Below, in pieces: positions 45 through 48,840 of a DNA stretch of 50,562 nucleotides. The notes under the pieces were generated by a model that was not told the origin of the DNA, did not search any database, and saw only the letters and a list, made by a program, of their open reading frames with translations. This DNA comes from Candidatus Sericytochromatia bacterium (GTDB lineage Bacteria > Cyanobacteriota > Sericytochromatia > S15B-MN24 > JAQBPE01). Where the stretch lies: NCBI GenBank assembly GCA_040400605.1, contig JBBAPZ010000009.1, positions 66,607 through 117,168 of the forward strand, read 5' to 3'. The translations under genes and the position numbers were made by a program. Numbering within the stretch: position 1 is the first letter of the stretch; each line of letters begins with the position of its first letter.

Positions 45-755
45 ATGTGGACCATACGACAGGCGCAAGCGCGTGGTCATGCACAGCATGGGTGGCTGAC
101 GAGCTGGCACAGTTTTTCGTTTGCTGATTATCTGGATCCGGCGCACATGCATTTTTCGGCACTGCGGGTGATCAATGAAGACATCGTGGCGCCTGGCAGC
201 GGCTTTGGCATGCATCCACACCGGGATATGGAAATCATCACGGTCATCTTGTCTGGCGTGTTGGAACACCAGGACAGCATGGGCAACAAGGCCCAGATTC
301 GTCCTGGCTTGGTGCAGTATATGAGTGCTGGCACGGGGGTCTTGCATAGCGAGTACAATCCCTCTAAAACAGAGCCGGTACACCTGTTGCAAATCTGGCT
401 GATGCCGAATCGCACTGGGCTGCCTCCGGCCTATGAAGAGCGGCGTTTTGATGACGCCACGCGGCGCGGGCAATTGCAGGTGGTGGCTTCGGCAGATGGT
501 CGAGCGGGCTCGTTCACGATCCGGCAGGATGCAAGCTTGATGGTTGGGCAGTTTGGCAGTGGCGATCGCCTCAGCGTGACGCCAGAGCCCGGACGAAGCA
601 TCTACATCCATTTGGCGACGGGTGAAGCCGAGGTTGCCGCTCACGCCTTGCAAGCGGGCGATGCGCTCATGGCGCATGATGCGCCGGGTTTTGAGATCGT
701 GGGTCTGGCTGAGACTTCAACCGTTCTGGTCTTCGATTTGCCGCCTGTGGGGTGA
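45..755 (+). CDS. Pirin family protein (YhhW-like, bicupin)
   Basis: Pirin motifs HGWLTSWHSFSFADY, LRVINED, GFGMHPHRDMEI, MSAGTGVLHSEYN. SD AAGGAGG at 31-37 favours ATG 45 over ATG 39. Confidence 0.93.
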   Translation: MWTIRQAQARGHAQHGWLTSWHSFSFADYLDPAHMHFSALRVINEDIVAPGSGFGMHPHRDMEIITVILSGVLEHQDSMGNKAQIRPGLVQYMSAGTGVLHSEYNPSKTEPVHLLQIWLMPNRTGLPPAYEERRFDDATRRGQLQVVASADGRAGSFTIRQDASLMVGQFGSGDRLSVTPEPGRSIYIHLATGEAEVAAHALQAGDALMAHDAPGFEIVGLAETSTVLVFDLPPVG

Positions 756-996
756 GCGTGGTTGCAGGATTGAATGCCCGTCAACACTTGTTCAACAATC
801 AAAGCGTTTCGGTATATCTCACCACAACCAGTCATTCAAGACTAAGTGACGTGCCCCACGCGCCTCAATAAGACTTGAATATTCATTCGCGATCATCTAG
901 CATCTCGACTGGGTCAAAAAGAACGGGTGCCAAAAGGATGCTCAAAACGGCAAAAATTGGTGATAAGGAATCCTCTTGGGGGCGTCATATCGATCT

Positions 997-2238
997 TCAC
1001 TTGCCCCACAGACTGGCGATCGGTGCAGCCCAAAGCCTGTCGCCCAGGGGCAGTAGCACGTCACCGTCATACATCAGAATCCCCATTTTGAACTGTTCAC
1101 CCGCCAGATGGGCGAGTTTTTTCAAACCACGCAGATCATTCGCCCTGACGGTAGCCGACGCCTTGACCTCCACACCGACTATCTCACCACGTGGGTTTTC
1201 AATCACCAAATCAACCTCAAACTGTTCGGTGTCCCGATAGCCCATTACCTGATAATCCCCGAGCGCCACCGTTGCGTGTTTGAGCAACTCACCGTACACA
1301 AACGTTTCCAGCACGTTGCCAAAGCGTGTGCGTTCCAACTGAACACCCTCAGCGGTCATGCCAAGCAACACGGCTAGTAAACCGGAATCGATAAACTGCA
1401 ACTTTGGTGTCTTGACAAGCCGTTTCAGCCGATTTCGTGCCCAGACCTCCACACGCCTGAGCAAATACATCTGCTCCAGAATCCCGATGTAACGCGCAAC
1501 GGTCTTTCCGTCAAGCCCAACCTGTCCACCCAGTTCCGTAAACCGGCACAACTGACCCGCCCCTTGGGCCAAGGCACGCAAAAAACGAGGCAAGTGATCC
1601 CGTTTTTCGATACTGGCAATATAGCGAACATCACGCTGAATGATCGCATCCAGATACTGTCTCGCCCAAATGTTCCGACGCTTGACACTACTTCGCGCGC
1701 AAGCCTCCGGATAGCCCCCACGCAACACGCGTTCAACCAACACATCGCCATGGACTGCCACCCGCGGTAAAGGAATGCGTCCCTCAAAGACACAATCAAG
1801 CCAGTTGGTCGAGTGTCCCTCGATTTCACCCTGCGCCAAAGGCAGCAGTGTCAAAGTCTCCATCCTACCTGCCAACGAATCTGCCACTGTTGGCAACAAT
1901 ATGACATTCGCCGAGCCTGTGAGCAAAAAGCGTCCCGGCCGACGATCCTCATCCACAACCTTCTTGATGGCGAGCAGCAACTCGGGCGCACGCTGAACTT
2001 CATCAATCACTGCCCTATCCAAACTCCGGATGAAGCCCACCGGATCCTCACGGGCAGACAAACGCGTCAACTCATCATCCAAGGTCAAATAACGTGCGCC
2101 ACCCTCCGCCATTTGACGCACCAAGGTGGTCTTGCCCGCCTGACGCGGCCCAACCAGCAACACGACCGGCGTGTCTGCCATGGCCTCAACCAAAGGACCT
2201 TCTACCCAGCGTTTATAAAAAGTTGGCACACTCATCAT
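997..2238 (-). CDS. AAA_14 ATPase with DUF4143 domain (ATPase, HTH-like segment, PD-(D/E)XK-like C-terminus)
   Basis: Walker A GPRQAGKTT, Walker B AVIDEVQ, LTGSA, ESLAGR-like DSLAGR, GGYPEA, HTH-like FTELGGQVGLDGKTVARYIGILE, C-terminal EVDLVIE...GVEVK. Confidence 0.92.
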   Translation of the reverse strand: MMSVPTFYKRWVEGPLVEAMADTPVVLLVGPRQAGKTTLVRQMAEGGARYLTLDDELTRLSAREDPVGFIRSLDRAVIDEVQRAPELLLAIKKVVDEDRRPGRFLLTGSANVILLPTVADSLAGRMETLTLLPLAQGEIEGHSTNWLDCVFEGRIPLPRVAVHGDVLVERVLRGGYPEACARSSVKRRNIWARQYLDAIIQRDVRYIASIEKRDHLPRFLRALAQGAGQLCRFTELGGQVGLDGKTVARYIGILEQMYLLRRVEVWARNRLKRLVKTPKLQFIDSGLLAVLLGMTAEGVQLERTRFGNVLETFVYGELLKHATVALGDYQVMGYRDTEQFEVDLVIENPRGEIVGVEVKASATVRANDLRGLKKLAHLAGEQFKMGILMYDGDVLLPLGDRLWAAPIASLWGK

Positions 2239-2251
2239 CGATCCATGCTAC

Positions 2252-2317
2252 CGTAAATTCCGGAATCTATTGATGTAAAATCCGGAATCAGTCGACGTAA
2301 TTTCCGGAATCAGTGAA
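2252..2317. repeat. Three tandem 22-bp repeats with palindromic TCCGGA core; probable operator of the DUF4143 ATPase gene
   Basis: Units cgtaaattccggaatctattga / tgtaaaatccggaatcagtcga / cgtaatttccggaatcagtgaa. They abut a minus-strand -10-like TAGCAT (2245-2250) that lies 6 nt from the ATG. Confidence 0.85.
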
Positions 2318-2487
2318 CCTGTTACCAGGAATAACGATGGCACAACGTGCAAGGTGCAGCGCACTTTAAAGCATCGATACCCATGGTTTGATTCAGACTT
2401 ATCGACACACAAACACCGATGCGGCCGCGTTTTTGATGACCATACTCGACGGTCATATTGCGCCGGTGCACGCAGGATGACGCTGAG

Positions 2488-3021: not shown

Positions 3022-3233
3022 CTCACCAACCTTCGAACCGCCAGGAACCGAATCCCGACCTTGCCCAAGGCACGATCGGCTTTCATTGTACTACAGGTGC
3101 GCCACGCTTCGCTATCGACCCTTGCTACCGTGAACACCGGAATCTACAACCGTGAATTCGGGTGTTCAGTCACCCTAAAATTTCAGAACCAAACGGTTTG
3201 AGACACCAGTTAGCGTGAGTCATCGTGAGGATA

Positions 3234-3375: not shown

Positions 3376-3388
3376 GAAGGAGCCCACG

Positions 3389-3682: not shown

Positions 3683-3683
3683 A

Positions 3684-4197: not shown

Positions 4198-5493
4198 GTG
4201 AAAAAACTCGGGTGGGTGGTACTGGTGGCCGCCGTTTGGGTCCCTTGCGCAATGGCTCCGGTGAGGGCGGTCAGCACGCAAGCCCCGCAAGCGCGATTGC
4301 TTGGGCGGGCGATCGTCCCTGCGGGAACCTTCTTGCCGGGACCCACCAGTGGTCAATTTTTGGGGTCTGCGCCCATCAACGGGGTGTTGCCGCCTTTTCG
4401 CAACAAACAGCCCGTTCAGGGATTTTCTGCGATGGTTTCGGATGGTAAAACCGGCGTGTGGGTACTGGGAGACAATGGCTTTGGCAAGGCCGGCAATTCG
4501 GCCGATGCGCGCTTGCGGGTGTATCACCTGAAACCGGACTGGTCGGGTCGCGCGCGGCCAGGGGCAGTTGCTGTGCTTGAAACCTTCGATTTGCGGGATC
4601 CGGATCGGTTTTTGCCCTATCCGCTGGCCAATCCTGAGGACCCGGATCGTTATCTGAGCGGGGCTGATCTCGACACGGAATCGTTTCAACGCATGACAGA
4701 TGGCACGTGGTGGATCGGGGATGAACTCGGGCCGTTTCTGGTGCATGTGGATGCCAAAGGCGTTGTGCTGGCGCCACCCGTTCGCTTGCCGCTGGATGGT
4801 CTGGCAGGGCCCGAGGTGCGATCGCCCGACTCACCCTTCGAACGGTATCCTGTGTCAACCAGCGGTACCGTTCGGGCATCGGTCCAGCCAGGCACATCAA
4901 GAATTCCGACGGTGACGATACGTACCCAGTTTTCTGGTGGATTCGAGGGAATGGCACTCTCACCGGATGGTCACACCCTGTATCCGATGCTCGAAAAGCC
5001 ATTACCCGATGCCAAGAATCGCCTGCTGCCAATCTATCGCTTTGATGTGCGCCAGTCGCGTTACACCGGCATTTGGGCTTTTTACCCGATGGAGGCGTCA
5101 ACCACTTCGGTCGCGGATTTTGTTCTGGTGTCCGCGACGCGGGGACTGGTCATCGAAAGGGATGATCGCGAAGGGGATCTTGGCGCCATCAAACGGGTGT
5201 ACCGCCTGGACTGGCAGGGGGAGGGCAAAGCAGTCAAAAAAACCCTGCTGGCAGACCTGATGGCGATCGCCGACCCCCAAAAGCTTGCGGGCGCACCTCG
5301 CCCCGGCGATATTGGCATACAAAATCCCTTCGCGTTACCATTTTTCACGATTGAAGGTCTTTTACCTCTGGGGACACAGGAACTGGGCGTGGTAACGGAT
5401 AATAACTACCCATTCAGTGCAGGCCGACACCCCAAACCACCGCGCCCGGATGACACGGAGTTTGTACGCATCCGGCTTGGCTCGTCGTTTTGA
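4198..5493 (+). CDS. Secreted phytase-like (esterase-like activity of phytase) protein, copy 1
   Basis: Signal peptide; QPVQGFS, DNGFG, DLDTES, WIGDELGP, GFEGMA, IEG, DNNYP motifs. Confidence 0.85.
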   Translation: MKKLGWVVLVAAVWVPCAMAPVRAVSTQAPQARLLGRAIVPAGTFLPGPTSGQFLGSAPINGVLPPFRNKQPVQGFSAMVSDGKTGVWVLGDNGFGKAGNSADARLRVYHLKPDWSGRARPGAVAVLETFDLRDPDRFLPYPLANPEDPDRYLSGADLDTESFQRMTDGTWWIGDELGPFLVHVDAKGVVLAPPVRLPLDGLAGPEVRSPDSPFERYPVSTSGTVRASVQPGTSRIPTVTIRTQFSGGFEGMALSPDGHTLYPMLEKPLPDAKNRLLPIYRFDVRQSRYTGIWAFYPMEASTTSVADFVLVSATRGLVIERDDREGDLGAIKRVYRLDWQGEGKAVKKTLLADLMAIADPQKLAGAPRPGDIGIQNPFALPFFTIEGLLPLGTQELGVVTDNNYPFSAGRHPKPPRPDDTEFVRIRLGSSF

Positions 5494-7392: not shown

Positions 7393-8889
7393 ATGCAAGA
7401 CTGTATTCTGGCCATCGATCAAGGCACCACTGGTTCTACCGTCATACTCTTTGACACAGATGGCCGTGTCGTGGGACGGGGCTATCAAGAATTTCCGCAG
7501 CACTTCCCGCAACCGGGCTGGGTCGAGCATGACGCCAACGAAATTCTGGAGGCAACCCTTAACGCGCTTGCCACCTGTATGGAATCGGTGGCAACATCGG
7601 TTACCATCATAGGCATTGGGATCACCAATCAGCGGGAGACCTGCCTGTTGTGGGATCGCGCGACCGGCCGGCCTGTGCACAAGGCGATCGTCTGGCAGTG
7701 CCGCCGTACGGCATCACGCTGCGCCGAACTGGTGGCAAGCGGATTGGAAACAATCGTTCGCGAGAAAACGGGTCTCGTTCTGGACGCCTATTTTTCTGGC
7801 ACCAAACTGCAGTGGCTGCTCGAATCCGACCCCGACATCCGGGCACGCGCCGAACGCAACGAACTGGCCTTTGGAACCATTGATACGTGGTTGCTGTGGC
7901 ATCTCACGGGTGGCACGGTGCACGCGACCGATGTGACCAATGCCAGTCGCACGATGCTCTTCAACCTGCATCGTCTCAATTGGGATGAAGAGTTGTTGCA
8001 CACATTGGGGATTCCTGCGTGCATCTTGCCCGAGGTCAAACCCAGTGGCGGTTTGTTCGGGCATACGGTTGCCATCGGGGGGTTACAGGCGGGTATTCCT
8101 GTCTTGGCGGTGGCTGGGGATCAACACGCGGCCTTGTTTGGACAGGGGTGTTTTACACCGGGGCAAGCCAAAAACACCTATGGCACCGGTTGCTTCATGC
8201 TCATGAATACGGGAACGGAAGTGGTTGTCAGCCAGAATCGGCTGCTGACCACCTTGGGGTGGCAACTGGCGGGTCAGGCACCTGTGTATGCGCTCGAAGG
8301 CAGCGTGTTTATGGCGGGTGCCGTGATTCAGTGGTTACGGGATGGCTTGGGGCTCATTCAAGATGCTGCCGAAAGTGAAAGTCTGGCAGCCCAGGTCGCT
8401 GATAACGGTGGGGTGGTCGTGGTCCCAGCCTTCGTGGGCTTGGGTGCGCCCTATTGGGATGGCTTTGCGCGCGCGGCGATCTTGGGGCTGACGCGTGGGG
8501 CGACCAAGGCTCACATTGCGCGGGCGAGCCTGGAGGCGATCGCCTACCAGAGCCGCGACCTCCTCGATGCCATGGTCCGCGACAGTGGCGTGACACTCGC
8601 AGAACTCAAAGTCGACGGCGGCGCCACGGCCAACCACTTGCTGATGCAGTTTCAGGCCGATATCCTCGGGGTACCTGTCGTGCGTGACGCGATGGTCGAA
8701 GCCACCGCCTGGGGGGTTGCCGCAATGGCAGGTGTTATGCAGGGGCGCTGGCGCCTCGATGACCTTGCCCACCTGAAACAGGGCGTGATACGTTTCACGC
8801 CAGCCATGCGCGAGACCGAGCGCAGCCGCCTTTACGCGACTTGGCAAAAGGCTATCAACCGCACACTTGGCTGGGAGCAAAGCCTGTGA
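7393..8889 (+). CDS. glpK: Glycerol kinase
   Basis: AIDQGTTG, GWVEHD, GITNQRET, IVWQCRRT, YFSGTK, TDVTNASRT, GDQ, KNTYGTG, LGAPYWD, VDGG. Confidence 0.97.
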   Translation: MQDCILAIDQGTTGSTVILFDTDGRVVGRGYQEFPQHFPQPGWVEHDANEILEATLNALATCMESVATSVTIIGIGITNQRETCLLWDRATGRPVHKAIVWQCRRTASRCAELVASGLETIVREKTGLVLDAYFSGTKLQWLLESDPDIRARAERNELAFGTIDTWLLWHLTGGTVHATDVTNASRTMLFNLHRLNWDEELLHTLGIPACILPEVKPSGGLFGHTVAIGGLQAGIPVLAVAGDQHAALFGQGCFTPGQAKNTYGTGCFMLMNTGTEVVVSQNRLLTTLGWQLAGQAPVYALEGSVFMAGAVIQWLRDGLGLIQDAAESESLAAQVADNGGVVVVPAFVGLGAPYWDGFARAAILGLTRGATKAHIARASLEAIAYQSRDLLDAMVRDSGVTLAELKVDGGATANHLLMQFQADILGVPVVRDAMVEATAWGVAAMAGVMQGRWRLDDLAHLKQGVIRFTPAMRETERSRLYATWQKAINRTLGWEQSL

Positions 8890-10181
8890 CAAGACTCTGG
8901 TGGATGGCACTGGCAGCCGCGATCGGGGCGCCCTGCACGGTGTTGGCGAAAGAGGTCACCAAGGTGTCAGCCCCACAAGCCACTTTGCTTGGACGGGCGA
9001 TCGTTCCTGCGAGCACCTTTTTGCCAGGGCCAACCAGTGGTCAATTTTTGGGTTCGAAGCCCATCAACGGGGTGTTGCCGCCTTTTCGCAACAAACAGCC
9101 CGTTCAGGGATTTTCTGCGATGGTTTCGGATGGTAAAACCGGCGTGTGGGTACTGGGAGACAATGGCTTTGGCAAGGCCGGCAATTCGGCCGATGCGCGC
9201 TTGCGGGTGTATCACCTCCAGCCTGATTGGTCCGGACGCGGACGGCCCGGCCGGGTGGCGGTGCTTGAAACCTTCGATCTGCGGGACCCGCAACGGCAAT
9301 TACCCTATCCACTCGCCAATCCTGACGACCCCGAGCGTTATCTGAGCGGCGCGGATCTCGACACAGAATCGTTTCAGCGCATGCCCGACGGCTCCTGGTG
9401 GATCGGCGATGAACTCGGACCCTTTCTGGTGCACGTGGATGCCAAAGGCGTTGTACTGGCGCCACCCGTTCGCTTGCCGCTGGATGGTCTGGCAGGGCCC
9501 GAGGTGCGATCGCCCGACTCACCCTTCGAACGGTATCCTGTGTCAACCAGCGGTACCGTTCGGGCATCGGTCCAGCCAGGCACATCAAGAATTCCGACGG
9601 TGACGATACGTACCCAGTTTTCTGGTGGATTCGAGGGAATGGCACTCTCACCGGATGGTCACACCCTGTATCCGATGCTCGAAAAGCCATTACCCGATGC
9701 CAAGAATCGCCTGCTGCCAATCTATCGCTTTGATGTGCGCCAGTCGCGTTACACCGGCATTTGGGCTTTTTACCCGATGGAGGCGTCAACCACATCCGTC
9801 GCTGATTTCGTGTTGGTGTCAGCCACGCGGGGCCTGGTCATCGAACGAGATGATCGCGAAGGGGATCTTGGCGCAATCAAGCGGGTATACCGCTTGGACT
9901 GGCAAGGGATCGGCAAACCGGTCAAGAAAACCCTCGTGGCCGACTTGATGGCGATTGCCGACCCCCAACATCTGGCAGGCTCGCCTCGCCCTGGCGACAT
10001 TGGCATCACATCTCGCTTCGCGTTGCCATTTTTTACCATTGAGGGCCTTTTGCCCTTGGGACAACACGAACTGGGTATCGTAACGGATAACAACTATCCA
10101 TTCAGCACAGGACGACACCCCAAACCGCCCCGTCCCGATGACACGGAGTTTGTTCGCATTGGGCTCAGCTCGCCGTTTTGA
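8886..10181 (+). CDS. Secreted phytase-like protein, copy 2
   Basis: Paralog of 4198-5493. The GTG at 8886 overlaps the glpK TGA (GTGA) and is followed by a signal-peptide-like stretch. Confidence 0.85.
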   Translation: MTRLWWMALAAAIGAPCTVLAKEVTKVSAPQATLLGRAIVPASTFLPGPTSGQFLGSKPINGVLPPFRNKQPVQGFSAMVSDGKTGVWVLGDNGFGKAGNSADARLRVYHLQPDWSGRGRPGRVAVLETFDLRDPQRQLPYPLANPDDPERYLSGADLDTESFQRMPDGSWWIGDELGPFLVHVDAKGVVLAPPVRLPLDGLAGPEVRSPDSPFERYPVSTSGTVRASVQPGTSRIPTVTIRTQFSGGFEGMALSPDGHTLYPMLEKPLPDAKNRLLPIYRFDVRQSRYTGIWAFYPMEASTTSVADFVLVSATRGLVIERDDREGDLGAIKRVYRLDWQGIGKPVKKTLVADLMAIADPQHLAGSPRPGDIGITSRFALPFFTIEGLLPLGQHELGIVTDNNYPFSTGRHPKPPRPDDTEFVRIGLSSPF

Positions 10182-28507: not shown

Positions 28508-28571
28508 GCGTTGATTCGCCGACTACCCGTCTCACGCAAGTTTCAGGGAGCAAAACGCGATACAATCGCAC

Positions 28572-29558: not shown

Positions 29559-29565
29559 GGCACGT

Positions 29566-36742: not shown

Positions 36743-36744
36743 CG

Positions 36745-37539: not shown

Positions 37540-37610
37540 GGCTGTTGAATACATATCGGAAATGGCTTGGTCAACACCTGTTCAAGTAAGCGCGGTGGGT
37601 GGCTTGAAAC

Positions 37611-38693: not shown

Positions 38694-39260
38694 TCAAACA
38701 TTCCCTTCCTGCGAATTTTCGCTACCCACGCGTATCACTAATCAGATACCCAACACCTGCCCTATCATACGGGGGCTTGAAACTGACGGGCAATCACTGC
38801 AACTTTTCAGTAACACTTTGCACCCCTTGGACATCCGCGTGGCAAACGATCGATTTCGTGTTTCAGTGTCTGGATGTCAGAACAACCATTGACCACCCAT
38901 TACAACACGATAAAGCCATCGATTGATTGGTATCCCGTTTATGGCTGTGACTAAGTTTCACGGTATGCTTTTCGAAGTTTTAGCATTGGCTGCACACGTT
39001 TGGACAAAAACCTGCGCGTGACCTTGTACTCATTAACGCATTGGTATCTGTTCAAAACCTAAATGACAAACTCAAAGTATCAGGCTCTGACTCGCTGTTT
39101 TTGAACCACCACGAAAATTTGATCACCAAGCCACCCGTTTCTGTATCGTCAACGCGTTGGCAATCACGGACAGTATTGAATTCTTGGATAGGCTGCGATA
39201 CAAACGACATTGACGAGGCAATCAGACAATCCGATGAATCGGTCCGCGAATGGAAAAAAA

Positions 39261-41543
39261 ATGCGAAAAACCGCCATACTGGCTGCCAAACTGGGTGCGT
39301 GGGGGCATTGGGTCGTGACACATCATCGTGCGGTGCTGGTTGTCTGGTTATTGATCCTGTTTGCGACCGGTTGGACGGCCCGTGATCTGGTGCCACGTTT
39401 ACAAGGCGGATCCGGACAAATCACTGGCTCCGGTTCAGCAGGCGTTGAAAACCGTCTCGCAGAGGGCTTTGACTCGCCGTATGCGCAGAGCCTTGTGTGG
39501 GTGATTCGTACACCCACCGCCACCATTGATACCCCGGGCTTTCGCAAATGGGTTCAGGATTTGGCATCCACGATGAAAGAGACGCCGCATGTCCGGGCGA
39601 CCTTGGGTTGGGATGACCCCGGGGGTGAACGGTTGCGTGCCGATGATGGGCGTGGCGGCCTGTTACTGGTCGGGCTTGGTCCCGTACCCACCAAAACTGC
39701 GGAACAAATGGTGCCCATTTTGCGAATGCGCGCCGCCACGTTGCGTGCCGAATGGCTCAAGCAAAATCCTGGAGCCGAACTGTGGCTCACCGGTCGTGGT
39801 GCGCTAACGGCGGATCTGAACCGCTTTAACACGGAGGATTCGACCCGTGCTGAAATGCGCAGCCTACCGTTGACGGCCCTTGTACTGGTGTTGGCCTTTG
39901 GTTCCGTCGTGGCGGCCGGCTTGCCTGTCGGCAGTGGTGCACTGGCAGTTGTTGCAGCCTCCGCGTTGATGGTGCCTGTGACCCGCTGGATGGAATTGTC
40001 CACTTTGGCGCAGACAGTCGGTGCGATGCTTGGCCTCGCTCTCGGGATTGATTATGCGTTGCTCATCGTGCAGCGTTTTCGTGAAGCGCTGGCAGACGGG
40101 GATACGGTGTCCGACGCGGTTGCGCGGACGCTGTCGACGGCGGGTGTCGCCGTTTTGATCTCAGGCCTCACGGTTGCCATCGGCCTGTTGGGCCTGGCGG
40201 TCACCCCGATGCTGGACACCCGCTCCATGGGCATCGGCGGGATGTGCGTGACATTGACTTCGCTGCTGGTCAGTTTGACTTTGCTCCCAGCGCTGCTGGC
40301 CCTGTTTGGGACCCGTCTCAATGGGGCGCGTGGGCAGGCCCATCGACGCGCCCAGTCACTCACCGGACATTTCGAGCGCATCATCATCCGTGTGGTGTCC
40401 AAGCCTGCACTGGCAGTTGTTGGCGCAAGCATCATCGCGGGTCTGCTGGTCGCGCCCGTCTTCACATTGAAACCCGGTTTCCCCGATCGCCAGTGGCTAC
40501 CCGAAACAATGGAATACCGGCGAGGATTTGAAGCGATGCAAAAAATGGGCAAGGGTAGTCTAGTCGCGCCGATCGATGTCTTGCTCACCGCACCGGACGC
40601 TGCCTTGGCTCCCAAGCACCTGCCGGCGTTGCTGGCATTTGCCAAGCACCTGCGCAGCGATTCCCGTGTCACGACGGTGATCGGTTCCCCTGATTTTGGC
40701 AAGACCCTCCCACGCGCACAAATGATGATGTTTCTCGCCAATCCAGAGGCGGCCTTGCAACGGTTTCCGGAACTGGCCGCACACTTCGTGAGCCGCGATC
40801 GCCACACCCTGTACTGGCAAGTCCTGCTGCGTGATTCAACCTCGTTTGAGGAGGCCAAGACGTTCACCCGCGAATGGGAGAAACTCCCGCCACCAGGCTT
40901 CACCATCGCCGTCGGCGGACAAGCCGCCTTTTACCGTGACTATGACGATTTCACACCACAGACCGTCAAGCTGACCCTCTGCATCGTGTTGATCGGCACC
41001 CTGGTCTCCCTCAGCATCATCTTTCGCTCCTATTTAATCCCACTCAAAGCGATACTCCTCAACAGCCTGTCCGTCCTCGCAGGTCTGGGCGTCGTCGTAC
41101 TGGTATTCCAACACGGCATCGGCGGCACGCTGGTGGGCCTTGACGCACCGTTAGGGAGCACGCCTGTCCCCATCATTCTGAGCCTCTTTTGCCTCATGTT
41201 CGGCCTGAGCATGGACTACGAGATTTTTATCATCACGCGCATCAAAGAACACTATGACGCAGGCAGCAGCAACCGCGACGCAACCATCCAGGGCCTTAGT
41301 ACCACCGCTGGCGTCGTCACCAGCGCAGGCGCCATCATGCTCTGCGTCTTCGGAGCCTTCACTTTCGCCGAATACGCCGCCATCCAAATGCTCGGACTTG
41401 GACTCGCCGTCGCCATCGCCGTCGATGCCATCCTCATCCGACTCGTACTCCTCCCGGCCACCATGGTCCTGCTCGGCGACTGGAACTGGTACCCAGGCAA
41501 CCGTCCAGACGTAGACGCGAGAGCGATCGCCCGAATTCAATGA
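39261..41543 (+). CDS. MMPL family (RND) lipid transporter
   Basis: GLALGIDYALLIVQRFREAL, SGLTV, FGLSMDYEIFIITRIKE, TSAGAIM, WNWYP. ORF is open from 39210; start uncertain. Confidence 0.92.
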   Translation: MRKTAILAAKLGAWGHWVVTHHRAVLVVWLLILFATGWTARDLVPRLQGGSGQITGSGSAGVENRLAEGFDSPYAQSLVWVIRTPTATIDTPGFRKWVQDLASTMKETPHVRATLGWDDPGGERLRADDGRGGLLLVGLGPVPTKTAEQMVPILRMRAATLRAEWLKQNPGAELWLTGRGALTADLNRFNTEDSTRAEMRSLPLTALVLVLAFGSVVAAGLPVGSGALAVVAASALMVPVTRWMELSTLAQTVGAMLGLALGIDYALLIVQRFREALADGDTVSDAVARTLSTAGVAVLISGLTVAIGLLGLAVTPMLDTRSMGIGGMCVTLTSLLVSLTLLPALLALFGTRLNGARGQAHRRAQSLTGHFERIIIRVVSKPALAVVGASIIAGLLVAPVFTLKPGFPDRQWLPETMEYRRGFEAMQKMGKGSLVAPIDVLLTAPDAALAPKHLPALLAFAKHLRSDSRVTTVIGSPDFGKTLPRAQMMMFLANPEAALQRFPELAAHFVSRDRHTLYWQVLLRDSTSFEEAKTFTREWEKLPPPGFTIAVGGQAAFYRDYDDFTPQTVKLTLCIVLIGTLVSLSIIFRSYLIPLKAILLNSLSVLAGLGVVVLVFQHGIGGTLVGLDAPLGSTPVPIILSLFCLMFGLSMDYEIFIITRIKEHYDAGSSNRDATIQGLSTTAGVVTSAGAIMLCVFGAFTFAEYAAIQMLGLGLAVAIAVDAILIRLVLLPATMVLLGDWNWYPGNRPDVDARAIARIQ

Positions 41544-41560
41544 ATTAACACAAAATTAAC

Positions 41561-41588
41561 GAAAGCAAATCTCGGGTGTCGCCGACAA
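41561..41588 (+). promoter_or_regulatory. Sigma28-like promoter candidate
   Basis: GAAAGCAA-N12-GCCGACAA. Confidence 0.4.
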
Positions 41589-41633
41589 GACGTTAGCGAT
41601 ATCTTCAGAGCCGGGGCTAAAGGGAAACAAGCC

Positions 41634-42026
41634 GTGCCAATACAAAACACCTTCGTGTCAAGCGCAGTGCAAGCAACGCATGGCATCGCCCCCCGTGTTG
41701 AGCGCGATCAGACCGAGACCGACAGCGTGGCGACCTTTGGTCGGGATGCGCGCGTGACAGCACCCAAGAGAGACACCCATGCGACCAGTCAGCCAAGCGG
41801 GCTGTGGCAGACGTTTCGCGCAAAGACAGCACCATTTAGACAATGGGCGAACACAACGAAATCAGGCTTACGATTCCAGGCAGCAATTGTCGCTAGTATT
41901 GGCGTGTTTTTCGCGGTTTTCTCCCGCGGGTTGACGCGCACCGCGCTTGTGGCTTTTTTTGCATATACTGCTGGTAAAGGCTTGCAGGAGAGCAAGCAGT
42001 CATCTCCTAACGCAGCCAATGTCTAA
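41634..42026 (+). CDS. Small hypothetical protein, polar N-terminus with C-terminal hydrophobic helices
   Basis: 130-aa ORF filling the gap between convergent genes; AAGGGA upstream. Confidence 0.55.
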   Translation: MPIQNTFVSSAVQATHGIAPRVERDQTETDSVATFGRDARVTAPKRDTHATSQPSGLWQTFRAKTAPFRQWANTTKSGLRFQAAIVASIGVFFAVFSRGLTRTALVAFFAYTAGKGLQESKQSSPNAANV

Positions 42027-42042
42027 TCTCCGGCCTCGAGTC

Positions 42043-43101
42043 TCAGAGAGTTACCCGTTGCCCGATGTTGGGCCTCACCTGTTCAAGCAAAGCGCTTATA
42101 ACGGCCTTGAAATCACCTGCCACCGCATAATCGGCCAGCTCCATCAAGGCGGTGTCCGGGCGCGTGTTGATGGCCACGATCACGCGGCTCTGGCGCATGG
42201 CATCGAGGTGTGACACGGAGCCCGACACCCCCACCCCGATGTACAGGTCCGGCGCGATGACCGTCCGGCGCGTTGAGACTTCCAGCGACTCATCGAGCAG
42301 GCCTGCGTCAATCACGCTGCGTGTCCCGCCCAGGCTCGCATCGATCGCCTCCGAAAAGCGCCGCACGAGTGCCACGCCTTCCGCATCGGCCACGCCCTTT
42401 CCGACCACGACCACCCGGCTGGCACGATCGAGCGGCACGCTCACCGGTAGGGCCTCATTGCCCACTACACGCACCCGCAAGGGGCCGGCAGCGAGATCCA
42501 CTTTTTCAACGTCGCCCATTCGCCAGGAATCAGGCACCGCCTCCGCAAACACGTTGGGGCACACCGTCGCCAGTTGTGGCCGCTGGTGCGGGATGACGAC
42601 ATCTGCTAGCGATCGCCCCCCAAAAGACGCCCGCGTCACAATGAGCCGCCGCTCCGATTCATCTAGGTCGAGCCCGCTGGCCTGAGCGACGATTCCGGTT
42701 TCAAGGCCGTCGGCCAGTCGCCCCATCCATTCACTCCCGAGGGGCGTCGCACCCGCCAGCACGATTTCAGGCCGGCGTTGCTTCACCCACTCAACCAAAG
42801 GTGCAAGCAGCGCATCAGCGAGTTGAGCAGTGAAATCCGGACCTTCAAACCAGTAAACCTGATCAGCGCCAAGGGCGATCAACTGCTGCGCATCTGATTC
42901 ATCCCCGCCAAACAAGACCGCTTCAAGGCGCACCCCGAGGCGATCGGCCAGTTCACGCCCGCGGCCCAGCATCTGCCGGGTAACGCGCGTGAAACCACCC
43001 GCCGCGCGTTCTGCGAGCACCCATATGTGGCGATAATCAGCCTGGGCTTCCGACGCACCCGCATCACTGCCCAGCAAAAACGCCAGATCATCGAGATCCA
43101 T
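42043..43101 (-). CDS. etfA: Electron transfer flavoprotein alpha subunit
   Basis: IWVLAE, GAD, RPEIVLAGAT, RPQLATV, PDLYIGVGVSG, IVAIN. Confidence 0.9.
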   Translation of the reverse strand: MDLDDLAFLLGSDAGASEAQADYRHIWVLAERAAGGFTRVTRQMLGRGRELADRLGVRLEAVLFGGDESDAQQLIALGADQVYWFEGPDFTAQLADALLAPLVEWVKQRRPEIVLAGATPLGSEWMGRLADGLETGIVAQASGLDLDESERRLIVTRASFGGRSLADVVIPHQRPQLATVCPNVFAEAVPDSWRMGDVEKVDLAAGPLRVRVVGNEALPVSVPLDRASRVVVVGKGVADAEGVALVRRFSEAIDASLGGTRSVIDAGLLDESLEVSTRRTVIAPDLYIGVGVSGSVSHLDAMRQSRVIVAINTRPDTALMELADYAVAGDFKAVISALLEQVRPNIGQRVTL

Positions 43102-43285
43102 CCCGCACCCCCTCCATCTTGCCTGTCACCACCTAACGCACAAACTCCTGATCTATCGTGTCGAGGCGTGTTTGAGTGTGTTTCCCGACAGCAATTGCCA
43201 CACCCCTCTCATCGCGATCGCTTTGGGCATTCAAGACCGGGACTGACCATTCAACATCGCATCATCCTGCATACGCCGAAAGTGG

Positions 43286-44077
43286 CTACACCTCGACCAA
43301 CTGCTTGGCACGCAATCTGGCCAGCAACGCTTGCGCAAGATTCCCCGCCTCTCCTTGCAACAACTCGCCCCGTTCACGCTTCTCTGGCTTGTAACTGCGC
43401 TGCACCACCGTCGCCGATGCATCGCCGCCCGCTTCGTCGCTGGTCAACCCAAGATCAGCGAGTGACCAGACCGTCAAAGGCTTCTTTGCCGCCTTCATGA
43501 CCCCCATCGCGTTCGGAATCCTCGGCTTGGCCGCATCCAGTGACACCGACAGCACCGCGGGACACGTGGCAATCACCCGCTCGCGCACACCTGTTGCATT
43601 GCGCAGGGCGTGCAGTTCCGTGCCAGCAAGCGTCGCCTCCACCACGTTCCCCACCAGCGGGTAGCCTAGGCGCTGGGCCATACGGGCGGGCACAAGCCCC
43701 GTGCCGCCATCCGCGCTCTGCTCACCAAGCAGGATGAGCCCAAGGGCCTCAAAGCGTCCCAGGGCCGCCGCAAGAACGCGGGTAGTGACGCCAGTGTCGG
43801 CGCCTGTCAAAGCAGGGTCAGTGACCAGATAGGCCTCGTCGCACCCGACTGCCAGGGCCTGACGCAAGGCAGCATCGGCCGCTGCAGGGCCCATCGCGAG
43901 TGCGATCACGCGCGCCTGAGTGGCCGCCTTGAGCGCAAGCGCCACTTCGAGCGCATGGCGATCGCCCAGGTTCACCACTCCCTTGGACTCCTCCCGCCGC
44001 ACACGCCCTGTATCGCGGTCAAGGCCCACCATGACGCTCTCTGGCACCTGCTTGATACACACCACAATGTCCATCAC
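43286..44077 (-). CDS. etfB: Electron transfer flavoprotein beta subunit
   Basis: IVVCIKQVP, ALEVAL, AMGP, GADT, GEQSADGGTG, PRIPN. Confidence 0.93.
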   Translation of the reverse strand: MMDIVVCIKQVPESVMVGLDRDTGRVRREESKGVVNLGDRHALEVALALKAATQARVIALAMGPAAADAALRQALAVGCDEAYLVTDPALTGADTGVTTRVLAAALGRFEALGLILLGEQSADGGTGLVPARMAQRLGYPLVGNVVEATLAGTELHALRNATGVRERVIATCPAVLSVSLDAAKPRIPNAMGVMKAAKKPLTVWSLADLGLTSDEAGGDASATVVQRSYKPEKRERGELLQGEAGNLAQALLARLRAKQLVEV

Positions 44078-44224
44078 GGCCCTCCACCCTCATAAACGGT
44101 GCGATCGCCCACGCGGTCATCAATTCACGATTCCACCAGGGACTTTAAAACCACCGTTTTGCCACCTCAAACAAATAAAGGCCGCGCGCCAGCCAGCCCC
44201 AGCGCAAGTGCCATACAAAAATCA

Positions 44225-44257
44225 GCGCGCCCGCGACCATGGCGGAAACGGGCGCGC
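44225..44257 (-). terminator. Probable intrinsic terminator/attenuator after the acyl-CoA dehydrogenase gene
   Basis: 9-bp stem GCGCGCCCG / CGGGCGCGC, followed on the minus strand by TGATTTTT; 8 nt past the stop codon. Confidence 0.55.
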
Positions 44258-44264
44258 GTAAGAC

Positions 44265-45446
44265 CTACACGCGAGCCAGTTCCTTTTTCTTGTCTTTGAG
44301 CAACTCGCGAGCAATGACGACCTTCTGGATCTCATTGGTGCCCTCGAAAATTTCAAAGATGCGTGCGTCACGGAACATGCGCTCGATCGGCAACTCGGAG
44401 CTGTAGCCCATGCCGCCGTGAATCTGCAGCGACTTGTTGATGACCCAACTTGACGCCTCCGTGCAATACAGTTTGATCATCGAACCGGGCACCGTGATGG
44501 ATTCCCCTTGATCCATCAACCAGGCCGCATGGTAAACCATCTGCTCCATCGCATAAATGCGCGTCGCCATTTCCGCCAGGTAAAACTGGATCGCCTGAAA
44601 CTCCGCGATGGGCTTCTTGAACTGCTGCCGTTGCAAAGAATGATTCACCGCCATCTCATAAGCTTCCTTGGCTGCTCCCAACGCGGCGGCTCCCAAAAAC
44701 AGGCGACCCTTGTCCAAGATTTTCATCGCCGTCACGAAACCATGCCCAACCTTGCCCAGCACGTTTGCGTGGGGCACGCGCACGTTCTCGAAGGTCACTG
44801 TCGTGGTACCGGAGCCTGCCAAGCCCATCTTGTGCTCTTTGGGACCCGAAATCACACCCGGCCCGCGCTCAACCAAAAATGCCGTCACACCACCGTGCGC
44901 ACCCAGTGCCGGATCCGTCACAGCAAACACCGTCATCAAATCCGCAATGTCCCCGTTGGTGATCCAGATTTTCTCACCGTTCAGAATCCAGTCATCCCCA
45001 TCACGCACCGCCCGCGTCTTGATGGCCGCCGCATCCGAACCGGCATTGGGCTCCGTCAAGGCAAAACACCCCACCATCTCAAGCGATGCCAACTTCGGAC
45101 AGTACTTCGTTTTCTGTTCCTGTGTCCCATCAAGCACCAAACCGTAAGTTCCGATGCCGCCGTGCGCACCCAACACGACACTGGTTGACGCACAGGCACG
45201 GGTGATTTCTTCAGCCAGTATCACGAAAGACACGCCATCCGCACCCGCACCACCGTATTCTTCGGGAATGGCCATTCCCATGAAACCCATCTCCGCCATC
45301 TTGTCGAGCAGCGATCGCTCAATTTTGGCATTCTTGTCGTGCTTGTTCGCCACCGGCCGAATCTCGGCGTTGACAAATTCCCGCGCCGCCTCGCGGAACA
45401 TGACATGCTCTTCTTTGATGTACGGATTCTTGAAGTCAATGCTCAT
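44265..45446 (-). CDS. Acyl-CoA dehydrogenase
   Basis: FALTEPNAGSD, NGEKIWITN, QIHGGMGY, IFEGTNEIQ. Confidence 0.96.
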   Translation of the reverse strand: MSIDFKNPYIKEEHVMFREAAREFVNAEIRPVANKHDKNAKIERSLLDKMAEMGFMGMAIPEEYGGAGADGVSFVILAEEITRACASTSVVLGAHGGIGTYGLVLDGTQEQKTKYCPKLASLEMVGCFALTEPNAGSDAAAIKTRAVRDGDDWILNGEKIWITNGDIADLMTVFAVTDPALGAHGGVTAFLVERGPGVISGPKEHKMGLAGSGTTTVTFENVRVPHANVLGKVGHGFVTAMKILDKGRLFLGAAALGAAKEAYEMAVNHSLQRQQFKKPIAEFQAIQFYLAEMATRIYAMEQMVYHAAWLMDQGESITVPGSMIKLYCTEASSWVINKSLQIHGGMGYSSELPIERMFRDARIFEIFEGTNEIQKVVIARELLKDKKKELARV

Positions 45447-45470
45447 TTCAACCCTCCTCTGCTTCCAAGC

Positions 45471-46265
45471 CTAGCGGTCACTAAAATTCGGACGGCGCTT
45501 TTCCTTGAACGCTGCGACGCCTTCTTTTTTGTCCTGTGTCTCCGCGACACGACCAAACAACTGCGCTTCGCGATCCAAACTGTCTGCCAAATCGTGCGAA
45601 CGACCATATGCCAACGCTTCCATGATCGCACCAATTGCTTGTGCACCAAAGCCGGTTATCTTCTTGGCCAGTCCCAGTGATTGCTTCACTACGTCCGATT
45701 CCGGCACGACCTTGTTCACAAGCCCGATGCGGAACGCCTCTTGCGCCGTGATGTTATCCGCGGTCAACAATAACTCCGTCGCTTTGGCCCAACCAACAAT
45801 ACGCGGCAAACGCTGCGTCCCACCGAAGCCCGGGATGATGCCCAAATTGATTTCCGGCTGGCCCAGCTTCGCGCGATCGCTCGCGATGCGAATGTGACAG
45901 GCCATGGCCAATTCCAGGCCCCCCCCCAAAGCGACACCATTGATAGCTGCAATCACTGGCTTGGTGAGCGATTCAATCTTGTCAAAGACAGCCTGACCAC
46001 CCTTGACCAGCCGAACCGCCTCGTCGGCGTTCTGAATCGCGGCAATTTCGTTAATGTCCGCACCCGCCACGAAGGCCATGCCGTTGCCAGTGATGATCAC
46101 CGCCTTCACGCGTTCATCCGCCGCCACCTCGTCAATAACCGCGCTCAACTCATTCATGGTGGCTGTATTGAGCGCATTCACCGGTGCGTGATCGATGGTC
46201 ACGATCGCGACCCGATCCTCCAGACGCCACTTCACATACTGTTGGGTTGCCGTTGACATCGTCAT
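45471..46265 (-). CDS. Enoyl-CoA hydratase (crotonase family)
   Basis: FVAGADI, ALGGGLELAMAC, GQPEINLG, GGTQRLPR. Confidence 0.95.
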   Translation of the reverse strand: MTMSTATQQYVKWRLEDRVAIVTIDHAPVNALNTATMNELSAVIDEVAADERVKAVIITGNGMAFVAGADINEIAAIQNADEAVRLVKGGQAVFDKIESLTKPVIAAINGVALGGGLELAMACHIRIASDRAKLGQPEINLGIIPGFGGTQRLPRIVGWAKATELLLTADNITAQEAFRIGLVNKVVPESDVVKQSLGLAKKITGFGAQAIGAIMEALAYGRSHDLADSLDREAQLFGRVAETQDKKEGVAAFKEKRRPNFSDR

Positions 46266-46370
46266 ATTCTCCTTCTCTGGTCACCCGTTCAAACACCAAA
46301 ACACATGTCAAACCCGTGTGGCGAGACAGGCTACACACCTGGCAGGGCCGGCCTAACCCCAAACCCAGTG

Positions 46371-47612
46371 CTACACCGTCTCAAGTGAAGCCGCATACTC
46401 CTTAAAGCCCTTGCCGGTTTTCACACCCAGATGACCCGCCCGGACCTTACGCTTGATCAGGGGCGCCGGTCGGAAGCGCTCACCCAGCACGCGGTGCAGT
46501 CCTTCGAGTTTTGCCAGCACCACGTCAAGGCCCATCTCATCCGCAATCTGCAAGGGCCCCTTCGGCCCACTGGTATCCGCCATCCCGGCACCCGCCATCA
46601 TCGCGATATCAATGTCGTTGGGCGACGCCACCTTTTCTTGCAAGGCATAGGCCGCTTCGTTGATCATCGGCAACAACAGCCGATCAAAACTGAACGGCGT
46701 GCCAGTAATGCCGGTCTCGGCCTGCACCGCAGCAATCTGCTCCGCCACGAAGGTCTCAGACGCATCGTTGTAAACATAAAAACCCGCCCCGTTCTTCTTG
46801 CCGAAGCGCCTGGCCTCAAACAACCGCTCAAGCAAAGTTGCCGGCGCCATCCGCAAGCCATACTCCTCATACAGCACATGCTGCACTTCGCGACAGATAT
46901 CCACACCCAGCATGTCCGCCAGGAAAAACGGCCCCATGGGCATACCCGCGGCCGTCACCGCCGCATCAATCACTTCCATCGACGCCGCACCCTCTTGCGC
47001 CGCATAAACAGCCTCATTGAAAAACGGCATCAGCAAGCGATTGACCAAAAAGCCCGCACATTCCTCCACCCGGATGGGCAATTTGCGCAACGATGTCGTG
47101 AAATCCATAACATCGTTGATGATATCCTCCGACGTTTCAAGGCCCGGGATCACCTCCACCAGCTTCATCACAGGCGCCGGATTAAAAAAGTGCATCCCGA
47201 TGACCTTGTCCGGCCGACCTGTCGAAGCCGCTAACTCCGAAATGGACAACGCGGATGTGTTGGAAGCCAAAATGCACGAACTGGGCGTTACCTTGTCCAA
47301 CTCGGCAAAGACCGCTTTTTTCACATCCATCCGCTCCGTAACCGCCTCGATGACCAGATCGACATCGTCGAAATCGTCGTAGGTTGTCGTTCCGGTGATC
47401 AGCGCCATCTTCTGGTCCATCTCGTGTTGGGTCATCTTGCCCTTTTTAACCCGCGACGCATACACCTCACGCGCCGCCTCAATGCCCTTATCCACAGCGT
47501 CTTGCGAAATATCCTTGATAATGACCGGCAAACCCGAATGCGACACCACCTGCGCGATGCCACCCCCCATGGTGCCCCCACCAATCACGGCCGCCTTATA
47601 GATATAAGCCAC
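46371..47612 (-). CDS. 3-hydroxyacyl-CoA dehydrogenase with duplicated C-terminal domain
   Basis: GGGTMGGGIA, IEAVTE, SNTS, GMHFFNPA, GFLVNR; two copies of the INEA...GP...AD..G segment. SD GAGGAGG before GTG 47612. Confidence 0.94.
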   Translation of the reverse strand: MAYIYKAAVIGGGTMGGGIAQVVSHSGLPVIIKDISQDAVDKGIEAAREVYASRVKKGKMTQHEMDQKMALITGTTTYDDFDDVDLVIEAVTERMDVKKAVFAELDKVTPSSCILASNTSALSISELAASTGRPDKVIGMHFFNPAPVMKLVEVIPGLETSEDIINDVMDFTTSLRKLPIRVEECAGFLVNRLLMPFFNEAVYAAQEGAASMEVIDAAVTAAGMPMGPFFLADMLGVDICREVQHVLYEEYGLRMAPATLLERLFEARRFGKKNGAGFYVYNDASETFVAEQIAAVQAETGITGTPFSFDRLLLPMINEAAYALQEKVASPNDIDIAMMAGAGMADTSGPKGPLQIADEMGLDVVLAKLEGLHRVLGERFRPAPLIKRKVRAGHLGVKTGKGFKEYAASLETV

Positions 47613-47649
47613 GCGCAACCCTCCTCTTCATTCCAACACAACCAAGGCA

Positions 47650-48840
47650 TCAGGCCCGTTCAAACACCAGAGCGGCCCCCATGCCACCCCCAACGCACAA
47701 ACCGACCACCCCACAACGCGCATCCCGACGCTTCAATTCGTACAGCAGGGTCAACGTGAGCCGCACACCAGTCGCCCCGATGGGGTGCCCCAAGGCGATC
47801 GCCCCCCCGTTCACGTTCAGCTTCTCCTTGGGCAAACCATACAGGCGATCGCACGCGATCACCTGCGCCGCAAACGCCTCGTTGATCTCAAACAAATCCA
47901 CCGCATCCTTATCCACACCCGCTTTCTTTAAAGCCTTGGGAATCGCCAGCGCCGGCCCCAACCCCATCCGCTCAGGCTCAAGACCCGCCACCGCATAACC
48001 CTTCAACGTCGCAAGCGGTATCAACCCCAACGCCTCACACTTATCGCGACTCATCATCACAAGCGCTGCCGCCGCATCATTCATAGGACACGAGTTACCC
48101 GGCGTCACCGTCCCACCTTCCTTGAAAATCGTGGGGTACATGGCCAAAGTTTGCGTATTCAACGCCGGATTCACACCCTCATCCTGTGCAAACGCCTCCG
48201 CAGCAACCGCCTTGCCTGCCACCTTCTTCGGCACCTGAACCGTCATCATCTCGTCCTTGAACCGTCCCTCACGCGTCGCCCGGAACGCCTTCTTGTGACT
48301 GTCCGCCGCAAACTTATCTTGATCCTCCCGCGTGATCCCAAACTCCTCCACCAGATTCTCAGCGGTCAAACCCATCATCTGGCCACACACCGGGTCAGTC
48401 AGTCCCTCCCACAACGTGTCAATGAACTGGCTGTGCCGCAAACGCTTGCCAAAACGCATATCCCGATTGACGTATGGCGCTGAACTCATCGACTCACAAC
48501 CAGCCACCATCACCACATCCGCATCCCCCAAGGCGATCGCCTGCGCGGCATTCATAATCGCCTGCACCCCCGACGCACAATTGCGATGCACCGTATAAGC
48601 CGGCACCTCCTTCGGAATCCCCGCATTCAACGCAATTACCCGCGCAATATTCGGTGCATCTGACCCCTGCGACGCACACCCCACAATCACCTCATCGATT
48701 ACCGAAGGATCCACCCCGGTACGCGAAAGCGCTTCAACCAATACCATCCGACCCAACTCCTGAGCCGACAGATCCTTTAACGCCCCACCAAAATTACCGA
48801 CCGGCGTCCGCACCCCACCAACAACCACCACTTCCCGCAT
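47650..48840 (-). CDS. Acetyl-CoA C-acyltransferase (thiolase)
   Basis: RTPVG, NCASG catalytic Cys, EINEAFA, GGAIALGHPIGATG, LCVGGGMG. Confidence 0.96.
   Translation of the reverse strand: MREVVVVGGVRTPVGNFGGALKDLSAQELGRMVLVEALSRTGVDPSVIDEVIVGCASQGSDAPNIARVIALNAGIPKEVPAYTVHRNCASGVQAIMNAAQAIALGDADVVMVAGCESMSSAPYVNRDMRFGKRLRHSQFIDTLWEGLTDPVCGQMMGLTAENLVEEFGITREDQDKFAADSHKKAFRATREGRFKDEMMTVQVPKKVAGKAVAAEAFAQDEGVNPALNTQTLAMYPTIFKEGGTVTPGNSCPMNDAAAALVMMSRDKCEALGLIPLATLKGYAVAGLEPERMGLGPALAIPKALKKAGVDKDAVDLFEINEAFAAQVIACDRLYGLPKEKLNVNGGAIALGHPIGATGVRLTLTLLYELKRRDARCGVVGLCVGGGMGAALVFERA

Follow-up and report, generated by a model that had tools for sequence, protein, structure and literature searches.

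The 50,562-nucleotide stretch analysed here, referred to as the window throughout, lies on contig JBBAPZ010000009.1 of a Candidatus Sericytochromatia assembly and contains glpK, the electron transfer flavoprotein genes etfA and etfB and genes of beta-oxidation, as an earlier reading of the sequence (the original prediction) had stated. Dispersed across the window from 562 to 48540 are 36 exact copies (0.71/kb) of the highly iterated palindrome HIP1, the eight-letter word GCGATCGC, which has long been treated as a hallmark of oxygenic cyanobacteria. The original prediction had counted at least 36 copies against one or two expected, and 100 dinucleotide shuffles of the window, used as its null, gave a mean of 1.77 and a maximum of 7. 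The window exceeds the host average of 0.48/kb (1,460 copies in 3.04 Mb), and 13 of its 36 sites extend to the decamer GGCGATCGCC.

Placement of the exact matches in our own gene calls assigned 17 sites to the peptide context AIA, nine to xDR, seven to xRSx and three to positions outside genes. AIA is encoded by the decamers at 5263–5270, 8536–8543 (in glpK), 10990–10997, 28638–28645, 31094–31101, 31931–31938, 47795–47802 and 48533–48540 (the last two in a thiolase gene), and by the octamers at 12087–12094, 14630–14637, 16640–16647, 28061–28068, 32521–32528, 33303–33310, 35960–35967, 37042–37049 and 41523–41530. GDR is read at the decamers 562–569, 14026–14033, 24483–24490 and 43958–43965 (in etfB) and at 34861–34868, RDR at 35197–35204 and 40795–40802, SDR at 45873–45880 in an enoyl-CoA hydratase gene, and CDR at 47845–47852 in the thiolase gene. 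VRSP occurs at 4818–4825 and 9506–9513, RRSL at 26979–26986, ERSP at 36508–36515, GRSL at 42609–42616 in etfA and ERSL at 45311–45318 in an acyl-CoA dehydrogenase gene; a further coding decamer lies at 22004–22011. Two sites are intergenic, one between etfB and etfA (43214–43221) and one at 44101–44108, while the third, at 29644–29651, falls outside the gene calls but within the open reading frame (ORF) 29566–30600 and is probably coding. The three frames cited in the original prediction (GDR at 562, VRSP at 4818, AIA at 5263) and its two intergenic positions were reproduced.

The flanks of the window sites are G-rich on the 5′ side and C-rich on the 3′ side (skew 0.051, 69% of 36 sites, z 3.4; z values here and below assume independence of overlapping sites). 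Contigs from run X3, which belongs to another study, span all 30 bins of window positions 28600–48590, with long pieces differing by a handful of letters, so that an assembly artefact can be dismissed.

HIP1 across the host genome

The host assembly (G000; 3.71 Mb, 174 contigs, 55.9% GC, 94.6% complete, 4.9% contaminated) comes from a non-photosynthetic bacterium of the class Sericytochromatia, within the cyanobacterial phylum, the type of host that the original prediction had proposed. The closest named relatives of its RecA are annotated as 'Candidatus Sericytochromatia bacterium' (86% and 91%, partial), two further matches being labelled Oscillatoriaceae (85% and 79%), and those of its MutL and Dam-family proteins are likewise from Sericytochromatia. 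RpoC forms one frame of 1,868 amino acids (aa), as in class members with the whole gene; rpoC is split in an oxygenic genome (654 aa) and in G042 (569 aa), the class of which may be Vampirovibrionia. The reaction-centre family PF00124 was detected in 57 of 151 genomes of the phylum and in none of 36 in the host's class. Neither the split rpoC1/rpoC2 nor the reaction-centre genes of oxygenic Cyanobacteriia were found in the host, nor were RbcL and PsaA motifs; a 16S rRNA gene is not assembled. The order of the host is presumably GTDB S15B-MN24. Its families are labelled f1–f4 and the other families of the class f5–f7; g9 is a genus within f4, and g10 and g14 are HIP1-rich genera. The host's GC content of 56% compares with 65–71% in most f1 relatives sampled, and its RpoC branch is long. 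We know of no culture of these organisms.

With 1,554 copies (418/Mb), HIP1 is the commonest 8-mer of the host assembly and both its most frequent and its most enriched octamer palindrome, with observed/expected (O/E) ratios of 18.0, 11.7, 6.6 and 8.1 at Markov orders 0–3 and a runner-up palindrome at 3.1 at order 2. Permutation of synonymous codons within each of the 3,341 self-called genes (10 rounds) predicted 344.5 coding copies, compared with 1,423 observed, a 4.1-fold excess that is present in every frame (3.1-, 5.7- and 24-fold, the last in the rarest). Under the same codon null the decamer (477 copies, 31%) was 9.6-fold enriched within genes, the synonymous near-matches GCCATCGC and GCGATTGC were under-represented (0.61- and 0.65-fold), and GATC was not enriched (0.95). 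The control word CCGATCGG, which shares composition and core with HIP1 and was chosen over the reversed pattern because the latter contains CTAG, reached 0.65 of its expectation in genes. HIP1 is denser within genes than outside (0.46 and 0.21/kb), and the non-coding DNA of 31 host contigs still held 113 copies versus 8.6–18.9 expected. Gaps between sites are exponential, as in a Poisson process (mean 2.0 kb, coefficient of variation (CV) 1.02, 1,365 gaps).

Were HIP1 here an artefact, arising from codon usage, from GC content or from cyanobacterial DNA contaminating the bin, the case would rest on the 805 of 1,423 coding sites that encode Ala-Ile-Ala, on the foreign contigs that the bin does contain, and on two relatives, G014 and G016, whose excess is gone at Markov order 2 (1.2 and 0.9; order-2 values of relatives were computed on fetched stretches of their genomes). 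Against it stand the codon-preserving excess, which is highest in the rarest frame, and the presence of HIP1 at 0.34–0.59/kb on all 19 of the largest host contigs, including those with rpoBC and recA; the foreign contigs are those lacking HIP1 (110 contigs, 455 kb, are without a copy), and 80 loci of other phyla, taken from among the RecA matches listed, range from 3 to 114/Mb by GC bin with order-2 O/E of only 0.6–1.3. We therefore regard this explanation as extremely improbable, and for the host, for f3 and for G007 it is refuted. The doubt raised in the original prediction that Ala-Ile-Ala codon bias could suffice was justified, and since the enrichment survives both the Markov and the codon nulls that it had proposed as a check, in a host without photosynthesis, we are dealing neither with a signal that vanishes under such nulls nor with an ordinary oxygenic cyanobacterium.

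The flanks carry a second signature. In the host, the strand 5′ of HIP1 is G-rich, with a skew of 0.067 at 10–100 bp (77% of 1,458 sites, z 26) that declines to 0.039, 0.022 and 0.010 in the next bins and is nil beyond 1 kb. The bias is a mirror image, G being raised and A and C lowered 5′ of the site on each strand, and it halves over ~250 bp. At fourfold sites it doubles to 0.14; within genes it is seen upstream of the site as well as downstream, read on the coding strand, and in all three frames, G gaining ~0.06 at the expense of C and A. It is graded from the decamer (0.087) through the octamer to 7-of-8 matches (0.025) and unflanked CGATCG (0.000), with 0 at random sites and 0.002 at GGCGCC. 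GATC far from HIP1 shows a skew of 0.014 (z 15), a quarter of the effect, even without a flank match, and this is by far the largest positive value among the 16 tetramer palindromes (next 0.003). All five oxygenic genomes examined had the same sign (0.033 when pooled, n 393, z 7.2), as did f3 (0.028, n 299, z 6.7), and 93 chance copies in other phyla gave no skew (0.002). Mirror-image flank bias hence accompanies HIP1 outside oxygenic cyanobacteria too.

HIP1 is also kept between congeners. In aligned DNA of six congener pairs, 174 of 303 site-counts (57%; conserved sites counted in both directions) were perfectly retained, compared with 364 of 1,456 (25%) for other 75%-GC palindromes. When the amino acids were required to be the same, HIP1 persisted in 90 of 117 directed comparisons, versus 50.4 expected from pair-specific synonymous retention rates, and control octamers with at least 24 comparisons stayed at 0.7–1.2 times their expectation. 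The signal comes from four f3 pairs, three of which (the g14 pairs) have genomes in common; the two f1 pairs had too few sites, and the host has no congener among the genomes compared. HIP1 in the host is best explained as a working cis-acting DNA site and not as a by-product of composition.

Distribution and origin

Across genomes, the distribution was measured as the ratio of HIP1 to CCGATCGG. Of the 23 genomes sampled from the order, 17 are enriched in HIP1 and three are marginal, while the nested genus g9 has lost it, with ratios of 6.0–21.9 in f1 (8/8), 6.4 in f2 (1/1), 7.6–18.7 in f3 (8/8), 3.1–4.5 in three f4 genomes and 1.0–1.5 in three genomes of g9. Order-2 O/E amounted to 3.3–6.1 for G007, G009, G011, G019, G021 and G025 and 2.7 for G006; the low values of G005 (1.1, 2 sites) and G010 (0.2), together with those of G014 and G016 given above, mark f4 as marginal and some f1 members as weak. 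Thirteen genomes of f5–f7 contain at most 79 HIP1/Mb with ratios of at most 3; in the other non-photosynthetic class, none of 161 genomes exceeds 132/Mb. Three of the latter, G175, G184 and G240 (77–132/Mb), possibly carry weak or decayed HIP1: G175 (45% GC) lies several-fold above its zero-order expectation, with a skew of 0.025 at 24 sites (z 1.6), the G184 region has an O/E of 0.8, and G240 an order-2 O/E of 2.2 on 8 sites. G027 of f5, in which 58% of 421 HIP1 copies are decamers though CCGATCGG is equally common, was rejected as HIP1-rich (ratio 1.0, no skew at n 45, bin 9% contaminated).

An RpoC tree of 30 rows, which omits f2 and a further 18 genomes of the class for lack of a usable row, grouped the order in one clade (100/99), in which f1 branches as the sister of f3+f4 and g9 falls inside f4; f5–f7 lie outside the order (94/94). 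Taken together with the distribution, this tree indicates that HIP1 was probably present in the ancestor of the order and decayed in g9. On the oxygenic side, the two earliest orders, Gloeobacterales and Thermostichales, lack HIP1 according to PMC13756078, which counts seven further losses. The original prediction had offered both an origin before oxygenic photosynthesis and convergence. Plain parsimony leans to two rises, as one ancient origin needs at least four extra losses, and we consider it somewhat more probable than not that HIP1 was amplified independently on machinery common to both groups or that its determinant was transferred. Losses are demonstrably easy, however, and without a shared cause one would hardly expect the same word to arise twice with the same extension and the same polarity of its flanks; for this reason we treat descent of HIP1, together with a putative reader that would start strand-asymmetric DNA processing at it, from the common ancestor of the cyanobacterial phylum, followed by repeated loss, as a serious possibility, albeit one short of probable. 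If true, HIP1 would predate oxygenic photosynthesis and would never have needed the C5 methylase DmtC, losses would have occurred in other Sericytochromatia, the other non-photosynthetic class, Gloeobacterales, Thermostichales and picocyanobacteria, and the reader would be among the few genes common to the order and crown cyanobacteria and missing from g9 and f6/f7.

Previous HIP1 surveys sampled oxygenic genomes only, according to the accessible portions of PMC4390886, PMC5861425 and PMC13756078. In the literature searched, which did not extend to supplementary genome lists or to Delaye and Moya 2011, we found no report of HIP1 in Sericytochromatia or Vampirovibrionia and none of a 'highly iterated palindrome' with Melainabacteria; the available text on Sericytochromatia and palindromes mentions CRISPR only. 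HIP1 is thus a familiar element that turns up here in an order from which, as far as these searches reach, it had not been described, and without the methylase usually tied to it. Photosynthesis, DmtC and RadC are removed as requirements for HIP1, whose function and origin have been debated for 30 years and are now testable by comparison: a second HIP1-rich clade, which HIP1-poor lineages separate from the first and within which one genus has lost the word, constitutes a natural experiment, and candidate readers can be intersected across two very distant groups. For metagenomics, HIP1 is not diagnostic of oxygenic cyanobacteria, and its absence marks foreign contigs in such bins.

Methylases, repair genes and candidate mechanism

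The original prediction had cited a link between HIP1 and GATC or CGATCG methylases; a Dam-like GATC enzyme is present in the host, but its occurrence across genomes does not follow that of HIP1. An orphan Dam-family gene is present in single copy through f1 and f3, with GATC-contact residues that align with those of DpnM and EcoDam, and the host enzyme is, judged by its sequence, a predicted DmtA-like GATC N6-methyladenine (m6A) methylase; in the Dam tree, which has an open backbone, the f1/f3 enzymes are not joined to the oxygenic ones. No CGATCG cytosine methylase, whether of the DmtC (C5) or of the m4C type, was found in the host: it (94.6% complete) and G007, G009, G011, G013 and G015 (95–100% complete) yielded no C5 methylase, and tblastn of the host assembly with four cyanobacterial SPPY-type candidates gave no match. 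Within the order, 9 of 27 genomes carry any C5 methylase, sporadically, and the best HIP1-rich assemblies none. Of the 28 C5 loci in the class, 13 passed a motif filter (matches in G001, G004 and G021 were left out), and none of these is close to the conserved cyanobacterial C5 cluster, which was taken as DmtC by its distribution alone. According to PMC4390886, four HIP1-rich cyanobacteria also lack a CGATCG C5 methylase, and we therefore regard the association as usual rather than strict. If methylation is relevant in this lineage, m6A at GATC is more likely than 5-methylcytosine at CGATCG.

Several other methylases were rejected as candidates. The L086 type, considered for CGATCG, has a close match only in G008 and distant ones in f3; at L086:911–2154 (G000:C4) a beta-class methylase, 75% identical to the G008 gene, precedes a PDDEXK_11 nuclease, the two making up a small restriction-modification-like pair that is probably mobile. 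The orphan type III Mod-like methylase L087 (L087:1324–2796, G000:C19), situated between two L,D-transpeptidase genes, is present in f1 and g9 and not in f3; it is single-copy, shows 56–62% identity in the five f1 relatives compared, and is without a counterpart in G005, which has less HIP1 than any other f1 genome. Alpha-order methylases with HPPY replacing DPPY (L175–L182) are conserved in f3 and in the HIP1-poor g9, with no tblastn match in the host, and L085 sits on a phage contig. L148 of G014, considered as a second GATC methylase, scored best to CcrM. The degenerate Dam-like gene L428 (L428:1093–2064), part of an mglA/mglB cluster, was discarded as HIP1-linked, as it gave one metagenome locus and look-alike clusters are commonest in Acidobacteriota. 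The g9 enzymes L289 and L290 belong to a different Dam lineage on a long branch, weakly placed beside the oxygenic enzymes; the ComEC of g9 is the most divergent, and RadC is lacking from this genus.

For repair and competence, the host encodes ComEA–ComEC, DprA, PilB, two PilT, PilC, MutS and MutL. RadC was found neither in the host nor in six HIP1-rich g10 and g14 genomes and is present in 15 of 19 f6/f7 genomes. Host MutL (L363:3037–4701; G000:C12:53037–54704) has lost its C-terminal endonuclease motifs and gives no PF08676 match, which is also true of E. coli MutL as far as the motifs are concerned. A cluster mate 92% identical to the host protein likewise lacks them, whereas near relatives with HIP1 keep them; we speculate that this loss explains why the host shows the strongest skew and its reach to plain GATC. 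An orphan Dam-family enzyme, MutS and a MutL without endonuclease motifs are thus shared with the Dam/MutH repair of E. coli, from which the host differs in that no MutH was found, GATC is not enriched and HIP1-bearing relatives retain the MutL motifs.

With modest confidence, we favour the explanation that HIP1 is the start site of a strand-asymmetric, one-directional DNA processing event in repair or recombination. A protein, the candidate reader, would recognise the full 8- to 10-mer, and a one-directional step would begin there, either as a nick from which the strand is replaced in the 5′→3′ direction or as a cut or Chi-like stop, the latter two leaving the 5′-side strand as a 3′-ended tail. 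This step would occur during repair or homologous recombination, probably including the integration of DNA acquired by the competence pilus, and HIP1-bearing DNA would preferentially be repaired or recombined in, whereby the word would be maintained. Nick-and-replace, cut-and-resect and a Chi-like stop should all yield the observed polarity, and the same flank polarity in oxygenic cyanobacteria suggests the same kind of process there. In agreement with such a role, HIP1 raises integration in a homology-dependent, Chi-like manner, according to the available text of Kamoku and Nielsen (10.1101/2024.09.10.611283).

A number of observations weigh against this explanation. Four other f1 genomes gave a pooled skew of −0.011 (n 80, z −1.5), G007 alone −0.036 (z −2.8), and f4 none (−0.001, n 30; skews in the HIP1-poor lineages g9, f4, f6 and the other non-photosynthetic class are based on few sites), while the GATC-wide skew was seen only in the host. 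No rise of T 5′ of the site was detected at fourfold positions, and plain single-strand deamination therefore fits poorly. Divergence between congeners is not lower near shared HIP1 sites, contrary to a simple better-repair model. Dam also occurs in the HIP1-poor groups f6, f7 and g9, and searches of G014, G020 and G027 did not find it; ComEC is shared by 43 of the 47 class genomes, among them HIP1-poor ones; and MutH was found in none of five genomes.

Among alternative explanations, a DNA uptake sequence, which the competence pilus or ComEA would favour in incoming DNA and which molecular drive would then multiply, is compatible with the processing site favoured above. It is in line with the full uptake gene set of the host, the random spacing of sites, the co-variation of pilus genes with HIP1 in oxygenic cyanobacteria (accessible portions of PMC13756078) and the four weakest ComEC scores of the class in g9, the genus that lost HIP1. 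As ComEC is class-wide, RadC, a top correlate in PMC13756078, does not track HIP1, and binding alone leaves a strand bias out to ~1 kb unexplained, we consider uptake unlikely as the explanation. Somewhat less likely still is the neutral ratchet of Elhai 2015, by which methyl-directed mismatch repair turns near-matches into functionless HIP1, here acting on GATC methylation. The skew does resemble a directional, repair-like process, the effect is graded from GATC to the decamer, GCCATCGC and GCGATTGC are depleted, and biased repair would likewise conserve sites; yet the model as given in the accessible part of PMC4390886 needs a CGATCG cytosine methylase, whereas no C5 methylase was found in the six genomes checked, and it predicts saturation near one site per kb, whereas spacing is Poisson at ~2 kb. 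A binding site for chromosome architecture with 10–90 kb periodicity (Xu et al. 2018) agrees in the conservation within coding DNA (PMC5861425, accessible portions), but nearest-neighbour spacing is random on contigs of up to 273 kb and a structural site predicts no strand-asymmetric flanks, which makes it very unlikely.

Comparison with known systems places the host element close to HIP1 of oxygenic cyanobacteria: it is the same 8-mer and the top octamer, it is conserved beyond codons, and it is accompanied by a Dam-like methylase, a competence pilus and the same flank polarity. The host differs in being non-photosynthetic, in belonging to another class, and in the DmtC-type C5 methylase and RadC not found in it. 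Its density lies within the 300–2,700/Mb and its 31% decamer extension within the 27–88% given in the accessible part of PMC4390886. The zero-order O/E of 18 is below the 55–228 and even the 24–42 of 'weak HIP1' in that source and at the bottom of the 15–300 in the accessible part of PMC5861425, the nulls being different.

Uptake sequences of Neisseria and Pasteurellaceae likewise occur as thousands of dispersed copies that reshape codon choice, in genomes with competence genes. They are non-palindromic and clustered in terminators, whereas HIP1 in the host is palindromic and denser in genes. Chi sites are non-palindromic as well and strand-oriented with respect to the replichore, whereas HIP1 is a perfect palindrome that may still work like Chi. 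Both are over-represented short words in genes with a proposed recombination role, Chi being read by RecBCD/AddAB (PMC5101192, in the accessible text). An AddA/AddB-like pair was recognised in the host by motif match only, and since model HIP1-rich cyanobacteria are without recBC or recCD, AddAB cannot be the shared reader.

Further observations on the window and the bin

A co-directional cluster at window positions 27449–37539 encodes a kinase, a lipid kinase, an OleC-like acyl-CoA ligase, a UbiA-type prenyltransferase and a PigC/Rph-like PEP-utilising enzyme, and likely represents a lipid or small-molecule pathway. A dispersed repeat is suggested at ~39070–39130, where runs X3 and X4 show a spike in depth and contigs with loose ends; such ends also occur at 47860–47900, within the conserved part of the thiolase.

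The HIP1-free contigs C20 (61.7 kb), C24 (45.0 kb), C27 (36.4 kb) and C36 of the host assembly are phage-like and probably not host DNA. C20 contains 0 GATC versus ~150 expected, and C20 and C24 avoid many 6-bp palindromes. Several small HIP1-free contigs look foreign, e.g. C40 with a type I restriction-modification system and C57 with an ORF that resembles Cas9. The region of rpoB, rpoC and fusA (G000:C2:239239–252612) contains one HIP1 in 13 kb of coding DNA versus ~6 at the coding rate of the genome, possibly reflecting a depletion of HIP1 in highly expressed genes.

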